A stretch of DNA of 64,000 nucleotides from Eledone cirrhosa. Lineage: Eukaryota. The notes below the pieces were generated by a model, which was not told the DNA's origin, did no database searches, and saw nothing but the letters and a program-made list of their open reading frames with translations. Position numbers and translations under genes: made by a program. Where the stretch lies: contig OZ024740.1 in NCBI GenBank assembly GCA_964016885.1, positions 65,348,001-65,412,000 of the forward strand, given 5' to 3'. Shown in pieces: positions 2,526 to 48,933 of the stretch (position 1 is its first letter; every line of letters starts with the position of its first letter).

Positions 2526-2991
2526 GAATGTATATATAGCGTATTTTGCAATACACTGTATGGTTAATTAAGAGCATTTCGAAGAACTTACGCTATTGTT
2601 TTAGAGTAGTGATATTCTCACTTACTTTAAATTTTCAGCAAACAGGGGAGATTAAGCTGACAGAGCTGTGTTTCGTACTGATTGGTACTTATCAAAGCCA
2701 AGTACTCCACCTGTTTGCTGAAAATCACGAATGTTTGATTCTTATAGAATTTTTAGTAATAATCAGGAACTGATTATACAGAGCGGTTGCCGGTCAAGCA
2801 GGAATTGAAAATTAGAATTGGCGCTCTGAAATAGCGATATATATATATATATATGAATGTATATATAGTGTATTTTGCAATACACTGTATGCTTAATTAA
2901 AAGCATTTCGAAGACCTTAGGCTATTGTTTTAGAGTAGTGAGATTCTCACTTACTTTAAATTTTCAGCAAACAGGGGAGGTAAAGCTGACA
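2526..2991 (-). mobile_element. HHR-bearing short repeat, family B: full unit (2526-2838) plus a partial tandem copy (2854-2991); PLE pLTR/retrozyme-like
   Basis: 2526-2661 is repeated at 2854-2991; flanked by (TA)n and (CA)n; contains the HHR at 2655-2699. Confidence 0.75.
2655..2699 (-). ncRNA. Type I hammerhead ribozyme, U3:A8 core
   Basis: Minus strand reads GGCU-UUGAUAA-GUAC(caauca)GUAC-GAAAC-acagcucu-GUC/AGCU; stem I is extended by pairing of 2631-2650 with 2705-2725. Confidence 0.8.
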
Positions 2992-3015
2992 CACACACAC
3001 ACACATATATATATC

Positions 3016-3113
3016 GGGGTCCTACTCGTTCCTATTATCCACTCTACTACCCTAAGTATTGAGTACTTTGGTGCGTTATGGTCCACCTGGTTCCCTTTCA
3101 CATTTCCTTCGTT
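3016..3113 (+). mobile_element. 3' fragment of HHR family G starting at the predicted cleavage site
   Basis: Near-identical to 40496-40593 (GGGGTCCTACTCGTTCCTATT...CATTTCCTYCGTT then (TA)n). Confidence 0.8.
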
Positions 3114-3769
3114 ATATATATATATATAGAAGCGTGTGTGTTTGTGTGTGTGTGGATAGATACATTTTGGAATATTTGAAATTTGGAAATGTGCGTTCAA
3201 ATGCAAACGATGATAACATTTAATAGATTCAAATCATAAGTTCCAAATTTCAATGCTTCTAATGCCAACCACATGTTTATAATTTAAGCAACGGACTTAT
3301 AATCTTCGCAGATGTCGAAATTGGAGAGGAGCAAACTCTTAGCGTAGTGAATAACCTAAGTAGCCAACATCCGAGAAGTGCGGAGTTCGATTTCCCAAAG
3401 GGACCTCAGTTCACATTTTCGCTCTCTAGGGCTAATTTCCTTGAGTTTGTTCAAATATATATATATAATTATTTACAAATATGGTCACAGCTTTACCACT
3501 TAAAAAACATTTAATATATATATATATGAACACGAAATGTGTCAGAAATGAGTAGGTCTAATTGTGCCGTGTGATGTATGAATGGGTTAGGTATCAGCAG
3601 GTTCCATCACATTTAACATACTATGAACTATGCAGAGGATGTAACTGGGATCACAGCCAAAGTATGCTTTTTCACGTTCTGTTGTTAATAGGCTCTCAAT
3701 TGTGGACCATTGAGCTAAGAGTACAGAACAACGAACCAGCCTGAGGTTTCTTGTTCGGTTAGGGAAAAC

Positions 3770-4230
3770 TCCGTCAGTATACTGCAGCAAGTACTAGGAG
3801 ATGAGCCGATGTCGCGCTCATGGATTTATGGAGGGTCATAAAAGTTGGTAGAGCACTTACAGAGCAGAAGGCCTTCACCGAATAGGACTGAGGCCAAGGT
3901 GGTGATTGGTGATCGTTTGTCGACAGTTTGAGTGATTGTAAGTGATCTGGGCATGAAGTGCAACACGGTTTGGAAGATTATCTCCGAACATTTGGTCCTT
4001 CTGAATGCTTGTGCGATCATAGTGCCAAAGATGCTGAACGATGACCAGATGAACGGTGTATGTATGTATGTTAGGATATCCTAGAGACTTGTGAAACTAA
4101 ACCAAACTTGCTGTTGAGTGGCCACACGGGGGATGAGTCATGGACTTTCTAGTCCAACCTTTGTTTCCGAACGTGGAACCCAACAAGCGGGAAAAGACGA
4201 CGGAGTAGTAGAGAAGACCGGAAGATTCTG
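3770..4230 (+). pseudogene. Decayed Tc1/mariner transposase fragment
   Basis: Translates to ...SDLGMKCNTVWKIISEHLVLLNACAIIVPKMLNDDQM and ...TGDESW, matching the mariner WVPxxL linker and first catalytic Asp motif; stops and frameshifts present. Confidence 0.65.
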
Positions 4231-45137: not shown

Positions 45138-45262
45138 TTGGATTAGTATGGTATAGACAAGTACATATGTTGTTTGTCAATACTCTGATATGCCCAGTTC
45201 CTTGTTGGGTTGTTAATTCACTGAGGAACTGTATTATATATATATATATATATATATATATA

Positions 45263-45450
45263 TAACAGATTAAAGTTTAAGCAAAGAATCGCTGCAAAGA
45301 ATCGCCCTTAACGGGATCTTCTGAAACTTTAATCTGTTATTTTAATAAATATTTGCACTACGGTTCTTATATATTTGATATATATTTATCCTTATCGAGC
45401 CCTCTATGGATTTTAGTCTTCAAAGTTATTATTATTACTATTATTACTAT
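45263..45450 (+). mobile_element. Family A copy with the HHR-like segment inverted
   Basis: 45263-45327 is the reverse complement of the 2315-2378 type sequence, rejoining the forward strand at AAACT. Confidence 0.75.
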
Positions 45451-46520
45451 ATATATATATAAATATAAACATATATAATGAATAAATACGAAATGCGTTT
45501 TTATATGTACATCTTTTTATTACTGTGGTTGTTACCTTACCGAGAAAATCCTAAGGAACACAAATCGTAGGGAGTTTTACATCTTTTAACAAAAAAGTCG
45601 GTGGTGTATATGATCAAGCAACTTTCATTAATCTCTCTCGCGCTCTCTCTCTCTCTCTCTCTCTCTCTCTCTCTCTCTCTCTCTCTCTCTCTCTCTATAT
45701 ATATATATATATATATATATATATATATATATATATATATATATATATATATAGAGAGAGAGAGAGAGAGAGAGAGAGAGAGATATTTATATACGTATAT
45801 ATACATATATATATATATGTATGTATGTATGTATGTATGTATGTATATATATATATATATATATATATATATATATATATATATGTGTGTGTGTGTGTGT
45901 GTGTATATATATATATATGTGTATGCCATATATATATATATATATATATAGTAATAATAATAAATTTGAAGACTAAAATCCAAAGAGGGTCTTATTTTCA
46001 ACGACCATTCCACATATTACAATGAAGTTCTTGCTCGGAGTGGATATACATATATGTATACAGACGTACAGTAGCATGCATATATATATATATATATATA
46101 TATATATATATATATATATATATATATATATATATATATATATATATACATACAGGTACACATACATATATGTACGTATCAGTTTAGCGGACGTTTATTA
46201 TAACGCCCGCTTTGTCCGTTTGTAATTTGTAAACAAACTGACAGCCCGAATTTATGCCGTACGGTGTTAAGGCAACCACGTCACCCTTTTGTTCAACACT
46301 GACACAGGAACGATGTACTAGTTTCACGCTTGTTAGCTATCATCGTGGTTGCCTTAACACGTGGTTGCCTTAACACCGTACGGCATAAATTCAGGCTGTC
46401 AGTTTGTTTAAAAATTACAAACGGACAAAGCGCGCGTTATAATAAACGTCCGCTAAACTGATACGTACATATATGTATGTGTACCTGTATGTATATATAT
46501 ATATATATATATATATATAT

Positions 46521-48933
46521 ACATTTTATTACTAATTATATCTAAATGTTTCTTCTCTCTTCATAATGTATTTTTAACTCTGATACTGGTTCAGTCTGGT
46601 TCAAACTGAATTGGTCTGTCCCAGTCATTCATTGAGCAACATCGGTGAAGTTGGCACCCTTAACTCACAGTTGGGTGCGGATGCATTCATGTATATATGT
46701 GTGTGTCCGCATGTATCTGTGTGTTTCTAAATATATTAATAACTCCCTCTGGTCGAGCAATCTTTGAAGTGTGGGGACAACTGGAAAGCTTCCATTACTC
46801 ATACTTCTCGCCTTCTTCACTACCTCTTCTACGGCCTCGATATGAATACCCCCTCCGCCTCCGTGGTATTTTCTTCGTGGTTATAAGAGGCTTAGCTCTG
46901 TTTCTCGACCGTTATATCGCGTGACTGTCTCCCCCTCCGCCTTTTGGGATTCTTTCTCACGTCGTGTAGACGCGTTCTTGAGACTAGTAAAATGAGGTAT
47001 CCTCTTGATAAGTCGGCAGACCTCGCAAGGACTCTATATCTTTGATATATTGTTTTTGTTTATGCCACGAAACTACGTAGTCGAGGAATTTAGGAACAGT
47101 TTAGGTATGATACATTTTATTACTAATTATATCTAAATGTTTCTTCTCTCTTCATAATGTATTTTTAACTCTGATACTGGTTCAGTCTGGTTCAAACTGA
47201 ATTGGTCTGTCCCAGTCATTCATTGAGCAACATCGGTGAAGTTGGCACCCTTAACTCACAGTTGGGTGCGGATGCATTCATGTATATATGTGTGTGTCCG
47301 CATGTATCTGTGTGTTTCTAAATATATTAATAACTCCCTCTGGTCGAGCAATCTCTGAAGTGTGGGGACAACTGAAAAGCTTCCATTACTCATACTTCTC
47401 GCCTTCTTCACTACCTCTTCTACGGCCTCGATATGAATACCCCCTCCGCCTCCGTGGTATTTTCTTCGTGGTTATAAGAGGCTTAGCTCTGTTTCTCGAC
47501 CGTTATATCGCGTGACTGTCTCCCCCTCCGCCTTTTGGGATTCTTTCTCACGTCGTGTAGACGCGTTCTTGAGACTAGTAAAATGAGGTATCCTCTTGAT
47601 AAGTCGGCAGACCTCGCAAGGACTCTATATCTTTGATATATTGTTTTTGTTTATGCCACGAAACTACGTAGTCGAGGAATTTAGGAACAGTTTAGGTATG
47701 ATACATTTTATTACTAATTATATCTAAATGTTTCTTCTCTCTTCATAATGTATTTTTAACTCTGATACTGGTTCAGTCTGGTTCAAACTGAATTGGTCTG
47801 TCCCAGTCATTCATTGAGCAACATCGGTGAAGTTGGCACCCTTAACTCACAGTTGGGTGCGGATGCATTCATGTATATATGTGTGTGTCCGCATGTATCT
47901 GTGTGTTTCTAAATATATTAATAACTCCCTCTGGTCGAGCAATCTTTGAAGTGTGGGGACAACTGGAAAGCTTCCATTACTCATACTTCTCGCCTTCTTC
48001 ACTACCTCTTCTACGGCCTCGATATGAATACCCCCTCCGCCTCCGTGGTATTTTCTTCGTGGTTATAAGAGGCTTAGCTCTGTTTCTCGACCGTTATATC
48101 GCGTGACTGTCTCCCCCTCCGCCTTTTGGGATTCTTTCTCACGTCGTGTAGACGCGTTCTTGAGACTAGTAAAATGAGGTATCCTCTTGATAAGTCGGCA
48201 GACCTCGCAAGGACTCTATATCTTTGATATATTGTTTTTGTTTATGCCACGAAACTACGTAGTCGAGGAATTTAGGAACAGTTTAGGTATGATACATTTT
48301 ATTACTAATTATATCTAAATGTTTCTTCTCTCTTGATAATGTATTTTTAACTCTGATACTGGTTCAGTCTGGTTCAAACTGAATTGGTCTGTCCCAGTCA
48401 TTCATTGAGCAACATCGGTGAAGTTGGCACCCTTAACTCACAGTTGGGTGCGGATGCATTCATGTATATATGTGTGTGTCCGCATGTATCTGTGTGTTTC
48501 TAAATATATTAATAACTCCCTCTGGTCGAGCAATCTTTGAAGTGTGGGGACAACTGGAAAGCTTCCATTACTCATACTTCTCGCCTTCTTCACTACCTCT
48601 TCTACGGCCTCGATATGAATACCCCCTCCGCCTCCGTGGTATTTTCTTCGTGGTTATAAGAGGCTTAGCTCTGTTTCTCGACCGTTATATCGCGTGACTG
48701 TCTCCCCCTCCGCCTTTTGGGATTCTTTCTCACGTCGTGTAGACGCGTTCTTGAGACTAGTAAAATGAGGTATCCTCTTGATAAGTCGGCAGACCTCGCA
48801 AGGACTCTATATCTTTGATATATTGTTTTTGTTTATGCCACGAAACTACGTAGTCGAGGAATTTAGGAACAGTTTAGGTATGATACATTTTATTACTAAT
48901 TATATCTAAATGTTTCTTCTCTCTTCATAATGT
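46521..48933 (+). mobile_element. Family H retrozyme-like array 2: about 4.08 head-to-tail 591-bp units, one HHR each (47000-47087, 47591-47678, 48182-48269, 48773-48860)
   Basis: Exact 591-bp period (ORF track 46697, 47288, 47879, 48470); near-identical units; (TA)n on both flanks. Confidence 0.9.
47000..47087 (+). ncRNA. Type I hammerhead ribozyme (family H), first of four in array 2
   Basis: UCCUC-UUGAUAA-GUcGGCA...UGCCAC-GAAACUACGUAGUC/GAGGA; GUC at 47080-47082. Confidence 0.82.

Follow-up and report, generated by a model that had tools for sequence, protein, structure and literature searches.

Hammerhead motifs with C3:G8 and U3:A8 core pairs in a 64,000-nt stretch of Eledone cirrhosa DNA: probable remnants of Penelope-type elements

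The exchange of the C3:G8 core pair of hammerhead ribozymes for U3:A8 is an established natural phenomenon. The available text of Perreault et al. (2011, PMC3088659) describes natural U3/A8 covariation together with a U10.1-U11.1 closing pair. In the hammerheads of Schistosoma Penelope-like elements (PLEs), the accessible part of the survey by Cervera and De la Pena (2014, PMC4209133) places U3-A8 at about 1,300 against 2,000, a U3:A8 share of about 39%. Fly and shrimp PLE rows in Fig. S3 of the same paper, whose GAAA column was extracted separately and placed by deduction, combine C3:G8 with U11.1, a palindromic helix III and A17 in the portion available. For the hammerhead of PAc Poseidon, an Anolis PLE, mutating either 3 or 8 singly abolishes activity and the double swap restores part of it, the swap being C3G/G8C and not U3:A8; for this one PLE tested, hammerhead cleavage is dispensable for insertion in vitro (PMC11167929). 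C3U/G8A kinetics are absent from PMC7151607. The available text of a recent preprint (10.64898/2026.07.22.740005) derives animal retrozymes from PLE pLTRs and reports that 8 of 9 predicted dimers failed to cleave.

The 64,000-nt stretch analyzed here (the window) appears, to judge from its sequence, to hold about ten hammerhead families left by Penelope-type elements, half with a C-G and half with a U-A core pair. We scanned it with descriptors that left positions 3, 7 and 8 unconstrained, using the shuffled window as control. The first such scan returned 15 matches versus 0.3 per shuffle (20 shuffles), which bears out the preliminary description's identification of the motifs as hammerheads; the second returned 7 versus 0.09 (100 shuffles) and the third 16 versus 0.5 (60 shuffles). 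Real matches in all three were exclusively U3:A8 or C3:G8; shuffle matches were spread over all 3/8 states, with 13 different pairs among the 30 of the third scan and U/A as the commonest (7/30). All ten intact families have the core N3-UGA-N-N8-A, GAAA and UH with a Watson-Crick 3:8 pair, and the motifs form three helices with helix I open, the type I topology, helix II of motif J being weak. Rfam gave no matches in the window at its gathering threshold, and no hammerhead family stood among the 150 of 187 matches listed at E<=10; its models presumably miss minimal and variant PLE motifs. That we are dealing with chance matches in AT-rich DNA, or with structures lacking a catalytic past, is hardly credible: the 7-mer TTGANAA is common (84 occurrences in the window), U/A leads the shuffle states, Rfam is silent and one motif near 27090 does resemble chance, but shuffle means of 0.09-0.5 stand against 7-16 real matches, palindromic helix III segments are present though the first descriptors never required them, and the hammerheads share a position near element 3' ends.

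Families B, C, E, G and H carry U3:A8, in agreement with the preliminary description. The family B hammerhead (2655..2699, minus strand, nucleotide 3 at 2695) has G10.1-C11.1 and C17 (2659) and lies near the 3' end of a 329-nt partial tandem ending in (TA)n; the element's upstream repeat (2870..2988, minus) starts at C17, with 4-nt microhomology with a (GT)n run. Family C comprises a plus-strand hammerhead (5601..5640, nucleotide 3 at 5606), an inverted copy (4765..4803, minus, nucleotide 3 at 4798) with a 6-nt palindromic helix III and A17, and a further plus-strand copy (11234..11273, nucleotide 3 at 11239) whose damaged helix I retains about 3 bp. The family E hammerhead (31864..31910, plus, nucleotide 3 at 31868) shows G10.1-C11.1 and C17, with (TA)n about 50 nt downstream. 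In family G, a hammerhead with long helices II and III (40405..40500, plus, nucleotide 3 at 40410, C17 at 40495) is accompanied by an inverted copy (40032..40125, minus, nucleotide 3 at 40121) and by a stub (3015..3112, plus) that is 94% identical to 40494-40592 and starts at C17 within a (TA)n run. Family H occurs as two plus-strand arrays: one of 595-nt units (40895..42281; hammerheads 41355-41444 and 41950-42039, nucleotide 3 at 41360 and 41955), and one of four 591-nt units (46522..48935) with a 10-nt palindromic helix III, (TA)n on its flanks and hammerheads at 47000-47087, 47591-47678, 48182-48269 and 48773-48860 (nucleotide 3 at 47005, 47596, 48187 and 48778). A further family H hammerhead (40701..40790, minus, nucleotide 3 at 40785) sits in an inverted truncated copy (40629-40898).

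The C3:G8 state assigned earlier to families D, F and I also holds, these letters having been matched to coordinates by position, as none were given for them before. The family D hammerhead (18663..18733, plus, nucleotide 3 at 18671) has A10.1-U11.1, an 8-nt palindromic helix III and A17, and its inverted copy (18533..18595, minus) is likewise C3:G8, with A15.1 changed to G. Family F has U10.1·U11.1 and A17 both at 32243..32283 (minus, nucleotide 3 at 32278) and at 49271..49313 (plus, nucleotide 3 at 49277), the latter past the end of the region described earlier; one arm of its truncated inverted pair (46172..46468) begins at core G5. The family I hammerhead (45083..45137, minus, nucleotide 3 at 45132) shows G10.1·U11.1 and A17. 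Two further C3:G8 motifs had been overlooked. Motif J (16619..16712, plus, nucleotide 3 at 16626; A10.1-U11.1, A17) is a single copy with helices I, II and III of 7, 4 and 8 bp and a competing fold; it was detected in two early scans and missed by the three free-3/7/8 scans because of its weak helix II. Motif K (33998..34085, minus, nucleotide 3 at 34079; U10.1·U11.1, A17) was found in the second and third of those. The scores of J and K were each attained in 0 of 300 shuffles, at thresholds chosen after both had been seen.

Several other candidates were set aside. The match at 58513 (minus) lies inside a LINE ORF and has no helix I or III, and the C3/A8 7-mer at 34635 (plus) failed the three-helix scans. 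Six minus-strand matches from one scan only, with U3 replaced by A (12958, 49208, 57730, 55916, 26107 and 20619), and a C3/U8 match with GCAA (15371, minus) were dropped before counting.

With J and K included, the family tally is 5:5 (5:4 minus J), so that U3:A8 does not outnumber C3:G8 as had been claimed (binomial p against 0.5 = 0.62 or 0.50, respectively). By copy the ratio is 14:7 among 21 core-bearing copies, seven of the 14 being tandem repeat H. Neither of two decayed motifs previously added to the U3/A8 side enlarges it. The one at 18112..18147 (minus) does have the U3/A8 letters, but GCAA in place of GAAA; it aligns with family C at a mean column identity of 80% and is thus not an independent case (its inverted partner at about 18425-18457 is missing the core). 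The one near 27090, at about 27088 (plus), has neither G12 nor helix I and was excluded on these grounds and on the abundance of the bare TTGANAA. No intact family mixes the two states, as stated before, and the 3-8 covariation is significant by Fisher's test (p = 0.018 at 5:3 families, 0.008 at 5:4 or 5:5). The pattern suggests that the 3-8 pair was under selection while the ancestors of these repeats were mobile; the earlier argument from unrelated families overstated their independence, and strictness holds within the window's intact families but not elsewhere, U3·G8 being present in one Saccoglossus row of a published alignment and in two of 15 metagenome families. Loci with U3:A8 and loci with C3:G8 differ in GC content at no more than borderline significance (p = 0.055, n = 6 and 7).

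The metagenome families come from a state-neutral scan of 4 of 64 collection parts, defined for a helix-III-less subclass with a fixed closing dinucleotide, which yielded 116 loci. A strict helix II filter passed 15 of 41 metagenome families versus one of 121 viral chance matches; in the viral scan, which served as a chance control, 0 of 121 matches got past the first structure filter. The 15 families, from unrelated eukaryote DNA, comprise seven with C3:G8, six with U3:A8, two with U3·G8 and none with C3·A8; hence U3:A8 is neither lineage-specific nor strictly covarying. Among 36 ORFs tested from the metagenome loci, there was one weak RT match and no GIY-YIG. An apparent switch between C3:G8 and U3:A8 inside a family (L170, L175, L188) vanished on clustering by flanks. 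These data bear directly on the preliminary proposal of a lineage-specific radiation in which U3:A8 overtook the canonical core. In its favor are the 14 of 21 copies and the contrast between five of ten families here and the published alignment, with two U3:A8 rows out of 56 (p about 1e-5). That alignment, in which 3/3 mollusc rows are C3:G8, also speaks against a normal share near one half. However, this baseline comes from a descriptor itself built on C3:G8, the family tally is even, and the U3:A8 share in the window differs neither from the 39% or so of Schistosoma (p = 0.25-0.35; 0.35 for the family tally) nor from the metagenome sample (p = 0.68-0.70; 0.70 for the family tally). We therefore consider such a radiation very unlikely and regard U3:A8 here as an ordinary example rather than a lineage-specific novelty.

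A second pattern links the 3:8 state to other core positions. G10.1-C11.1 is found in all five U3:A8 families (B, C, E, G, H) and U11.1 with A17 in all five C3:G8 families (D, F, I, J, K), an association with Fisher p = 0.008 on nine families, J left out. One explanation is epistasis, with a weak U3:A8 pair needing a strong G10.1-C11.1 and a non-canonical 10.1·U11.1 needing C3:G8, such that two co-adapted haplotypes arose repeatedly. The association is perfect, and apart from (TA)n artefacts the flanks of different families show no homology to one another. Przybilski and Hammann reportedly found in 2007 that tolerance to the 3-8 exchange is set by surrounding elements. We nevertheless think this explanation quite improbable. 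The pattern was noticed post hoc in only ten families; absence of flank homology does not make families independent; and shared descent explains it equally well, as fly and shrimp PLEs have the identical C3:G8/U11.1/A17 set. Moreover, the Schistosoma family Sm3 joins U3:A8 to a U10.1-A11.1 pair, and G10.1-C11.1 is present in most published C3:G8 rows. Given two states with distinct core sets, one of them matching fly and shrimp PLEs, inheritance in two lineages could account for the pattern in full. Both truncated copies that begin at C17, the B upstream repeat and the G stub, are only suggestive of self-cleavage 3' of N17. Accepting both that epistasis rather than descent keeps two co-adapted core haplotypes in one genome and that U3:A8 ribozymes cut in vivo, thereby defining the retroposed RNA's 5' end as seen in those copies, would be to back an unlikely combination.

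The assignment to Penelope-type elements comes from the form of the insertions. Inverted truncated companions accompany families C, D, F, G and H, partial tandems occur in B and H, and elements continue for about 50-150 nt beyond the cut site before giving way to a microsatellite. Partial tandems, inverted 5'-truncated copies and microsatellite targets, as expected of PLE (EN+) insertion, are thus all present in the window, its inverted companions and partial tandems matching the insertion structure given in the available part of PMC8557442. The 211 ORF pieces of the window yielded neither a Penelope RT nor a GIY-YIG domain, and the RT pieces that do occur belong to LINEs; hence the PLE link rests on architecture. 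The elements are non-autonomous or truncated and not full PLEs, an RT plus GIY-YIG ORF between pLTRs being absent. For one LINE piece, the best named homologues are from coral and shrimp at 40-58%, and a SINE-like repeat of the window used as bait recovered no metagenome contigs.

The helix III segments are wholly self-complementary in families C, D, E, F, H and I, for which a double-hammerhead fold is 12.6-20.3 kcal/mol lower than two monomer folds. They are partly paired in B and K (gains of 10.1 and 6.8 kcal/mol), and G and J form monomer hairpins (0.5 and 4.6 kcal/mol). Family H is a non-coding tandem (arrays of two and four units) in which two or more successive units each have a full type I hammerhead, and its head-to-tail joint recurs in contigs from runs X9 and X14. 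The repeat was found in 20 of 24 rows of the run search, with no RNA run among those listed, a result that has no bearing on expression. Both 3 and 8 of H are covered by the X9 and X14 contigs, and 8 by those of X17, with no alternative letter, these contigs on one H unit being too few and too alike for a covariation test; the five reads of the raw-read run X22 on one H unit all fall at a microsatellite-like patch.

Taken together, the motifs are probably type I hammerheads that non-autonomous Penelope-like repeats of at least two old lineages carry close to their 3' ends, with about half U3:A8 being normal for Penelope-type hammerheads. The carriers would be pLTR fragments or, as with the 591-nt tandem H, non-LTR retrozymes; a Penelope-type RT-endonuclease encoded at another site would have retroposed them into microsatellites, (TA)n among them. 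Palindromes of two copies in a multimeric transcript may pair into a double hammerhead that would cut after N17, releasing unit-length or circular RNA on which reverse transcription would start internally. Because 3 has to pair with 8, C3:G8 and U3:A8 are two tolerated states, possibly connected through a viable U3·G8 wobble, probably with some help from AT-rich mutation pressure. Families B, C, E, G and H (U3:A8, G10.1-C11.1) would form one lineage, and D, F, I, J and K (C3:G8, U11.1, A17) another.

With the U3:A8 swap in print since 2011, since 2014 for Penelope elements, and its frequency in the window unremarkable, the finding as first claimed has little significance. The window is rather a convenient natural panel of ten hammerhead families. 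Should the link of 3:8 to 10.1:11.1 and 17 survive phylogenetic control, it would amount to a new core rule; should truncated copies pile up at C17 genome-wide, they would offer rare in vivo evidence on the role of PLE hammerheads. Were co-adapted haplotypes and in vivo cutting both real, the copies would be a genomic read-out of cellular cleavage by Penelope-element hammerheads.

Among known systems, PLE hammerheads, as presented in the available parts of PMC4209133, resemble those of the window in their type I form, 4-8 bp helix I, dimer-suited palindromic helix III, U3-A8 as a second core state and opposite-strand pairs 100-700 bp apart; the C3:G8 class is close to the D. willistoni and M. 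japonicus rows of its Fig. S3. They differ in that the helix II arms of G and H are very long and the window is without a PLE ORF. Unlike the Schistosoma U3-A8 minimal motifs described there, the window's U3:A8 motifs have no additional base following A9 and retain a helix III segment of 6-19 nt. PAc Poseidon (PMC11167929), with its internal RT start and AT-rich target, fits the window's 3' ends; RNA-seq of that element placed no ends at the cut site, in contrast with the two genomic copies of the window that begin at C17. With the hammerheads of Perreault et al. (PMC3088659, available text), the window shares the 3:8 covariation and, in F and K, the U·U closing pair, but U3/A8 is rare there ("several examples") and present in half of the families here. 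Metazoan non-LTR retrozymes (PMC7229834 and the preprint) are like H in being non-coding head-to-tail repeats with one type I hammerhead per unit. Most other window families, unlike retrozyme tandems (PMC7229834), are solo or inverted fragments. The H unit, known here from DNA alone and with a U3:A8 core, is at 591-595 nt longer than the retrozymes of PMC7229834 (150-450 bp) and falls inside the 51-972 bp given in the available text of preprint 10.64898/2026.07.22.740005.

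The Rfam scan of the window returned no hammerhead at the gathering threshold and none among the E ≤ 10 matches listed (the best 150 of 187), so we wrote our own descriptors, in which positions 3, 7 and 8 were left unconstrained. The three scans gave 15, 7 and 16 matches versus 0.3, 0.09 and 0.5 per shuffle, which upholds the motifs as real hammerheads by sequence, and the outermost matches, at 2655 and 48860, have the same limits as in the preliminary description. In hammerhead position numbering, the copies with U3:A8, the swapped form of the usual C3:G8 core pair, comprise one in family B, three in C, one in E, two in G and seven in H. 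Those with C3:G8 comprise two in family D (one of them decayed), two with a full core in F (one past the end of the earlier range), one in I and two overlooked motifs, namely J (16626, forward strand) and K (34079, reverse strand). The levels of J and K were each attained in 0 of 300 shuffles at thresholds chosen post hoc; J is the weaker, being undetected in three of five scans. The copy tally is 14:7, and the tally by family is 5:5 (5:4 omitting J; p 0.5-0.62), at which the claimed majority of U3:A8 families falls away. The accompanying claim that intact families never mix the two states holds (Fisher p 0.008). Of the two motifs described as decayed, that at 18112-18147, with GCAA, is kin of family C; that at about 27088 has no G12, and the window contains its 7-mer 84 times. 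In this family C relative (18036-18533) GCAA replaces GAAA in each of the two arms, and a weak candidate at 15371 on the reverse strand (region 15300-15380) combines GCAA with a palindromic helix III; this could reflect a tolerated A13C variant instead of decay.

Natural U3:A8 was first reported in PMC3088659, and PMC4209133 gives about 1,300 U3-A8 matches versus 2,000 canonical ones for hammerheads of Schistosoma Penelope-like elements (PLEs). The 56-row alignment of the latter, a set derived from a canonical descriptor, contains by our own count 53 C3:G8, two U3:A8 and one U3·G8, and its three mollusc rows are canonical throughout; set against this alignment, the window gives p ~1e-5, the sole comparison favouring the preliminary description. 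As a neutral test, metagenome contigs were scanned with a pattern open to C or U at 3 and to A or G at 8; the sample, 116 loci drawn from 4 of the 64 parts of the contig collection, yielded 120 matches in 41 flank clusters. A strict helix II filter passes 15 clusters (7 C3:G8, 6 U3:A8, 2 U3·G8 and no C3·A8; 3:8 association, Fisher p 0.007) and a looser one 25 (8, 12, 4 and 1, respectively), with viral chance matches passing at 1 of 121 and 14 of 121. By copy, C3:G8 is found in 67 of 78, an excess due to the dominance of two large families. No PLE domain adjoining the metagenome matches was confirmed. By family, the window does not differ from this sample, which represents a different hammerhead subclass from few hosts (p 0.68-0.70), and the proposed lineage-specific radiation finds no support there. 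These counts thus make U3:A8 a common second state and U3·G8 a real one, with C3·A8 nearly absent. At three loci (L169, L213 and L230) a minimal hammerhead combines the U3·G8 wobble with a well-paired helix II; as L169 and L230 are one family, a mobile family can have U3·G8 as its state. Strict covariation accordingly stands within the window but not beyond it, as U3·G8 occurs in metagenome families and in a published row. The window is, in sum, an ordinary sample of Penelope-type hammerheads, whose motifs and covariation are real.

Because U3·G8 exists while C3·A8 is nearly absent, the likely route leads from C3:G8 through U3·G8 to U3:A8, with the pairing presumably kept by selection. AT-rich pressure may favour the U3:A8 state; locus GC is 0.35 for U3:A8 versus 0.39 for C3:G8 (p 0.055). 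In one PLE hammerhead, 3:8 single mutants do not cleave and the double swap partly restores cleavage (PMC11167929).

The families had further been called unrelated. Their flanks share only (TA)n artefacts, but other core positions split together with 3:8: G10.1-C11.1 is present in all five U3:A8 families and C17, at the nucleotide before the predicted cut site, in four of them, and A17 and U11.1, the latter in A-U, U·U or G·U, are shared by all five C3:G8 families. This second set recurs in the PLE rows for D. willistoni and M. japonicus in PMC4209133, and the likeness suggests that C3:G8/U11.1/A17 marks an old lineage; the effective n for strict covariation may therefore be two. Less probably, the split could reflect epistasis, rather than descent, tying the 3:8 state to the other core positions, against which Schistosoma Sm3 has U3:A8 beside U10.1-A11.1 (PMC4209133). 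A limited literature search did not meet the link of 3:8 to 10.1:11.1 and 17, which may be published.

In most cases the motif precedes, by about 50-150 nt, a fixed 3' end that borders on a microsatellite, and an inverted, truncated companion accompanies each of C, D, F, G and H; family B is a 329-nt partial tandem, and family H forms head-to-tail arrays of 595-nt and 591-nt units. From this architecture we infer a link to PLEs, for which companion, tandem and microsatellite-end features are already described (PMC8557442); tandem units that each contain a single hammerhead count as non-LTR retrozymes, a group traced by a preprint to PLE terminal repeats (pLTRs; 10.64898/2026.07.22.740005). As no PLE ORF was detected among the 211 ORF pieces of the window, the elements are non-autonomous or truncated. 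The head-to-tail joint of H recurs in contigs from two public runs. Repeat H reaches a share of at least 0.5 in 12 public runs; the 20 run rows containing it come from 16 studies and bear 17 organism labels, with low depth where reads aligned, and may represent DNA of the animal within mixed samples.

The window has a GC content of 35.6% and abundant microsatellites, with pieces of LINE reverse transcriptase (RT) and endonuclease at 29.4-30.4 kb and 55-64 kb; its character is that of animal DNA. A homologue search with one LINE piece had a coral and a shrimp as its best named matches (40-58%), which do not place the host. The LINE at 55110-60118 on the reverse strand, presumably R4/Dong-like, combines RT with a C-terminal zinc-knuckle and endonuclease-like region, and has flanking (TTA)n runs and a partial duplication (1769 nt, 91%). 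An apurinic-type endonuclease domain (PF03372) lies in a 452-aa ORF at 62574-63932 (forward strand), preceded by gag-like ORFs (60989-62500); we take this ORF to be the start of a Tx1/L1-like ORF2. A SINE-like repeat of ~190-210 nt, presumably similar to octopus SINEs, occurs at 9548-9738, 33813-33933, 36251-36378 and 51196-51877, with copies clustered in tandem at 51.2-51.9 kb; as bait it had 0 matches in the metagenome contigs. Long perfect hairpins at 16171-16400, 17610-17693 and 45250-45328, labelled MITE-like or fold-back insertions, gave sub-gathering scores versus plant and animal miRNA models. Two overlapping ORFs of 163 and 229 aa (53612-54771, forward strand) have the appearance of a transposase remnant and had no match in a Pfam search.

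Of about 12 truncated 5' ends, two, both of U3:A8 copies, coincide with C17: the upstream repeat of family B (2870-2988, reverse strand, starting at 2988) and a 98-nt stub of family G (3015-3112, forward strand). They lie head to head with 26 nt between them, across an (AC)n(AT)n run, and may represent a single event; a rough post hoc estimate puts the chance of two such ends at 0.006-0.03. Both ends still include C17, a nucleotide that would be absent from the 3' product of cleavage, so stalling of RT at helix III and cleavage explain them equally well. Either way, the hammerhead would have been folded in the template, a lead on activity to which we give little weight.

The helix III segment is fully self-complementary in 6 of 10 families, and in these six a double hammerhead is predicted to lie 12.6-20.3 kcal/mol below two monomer folds; for G and J, the models allow monomer folding. 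The predicted double-hammerhead folding of the window families agrees with the dimer model reviewed in PMC6765202.
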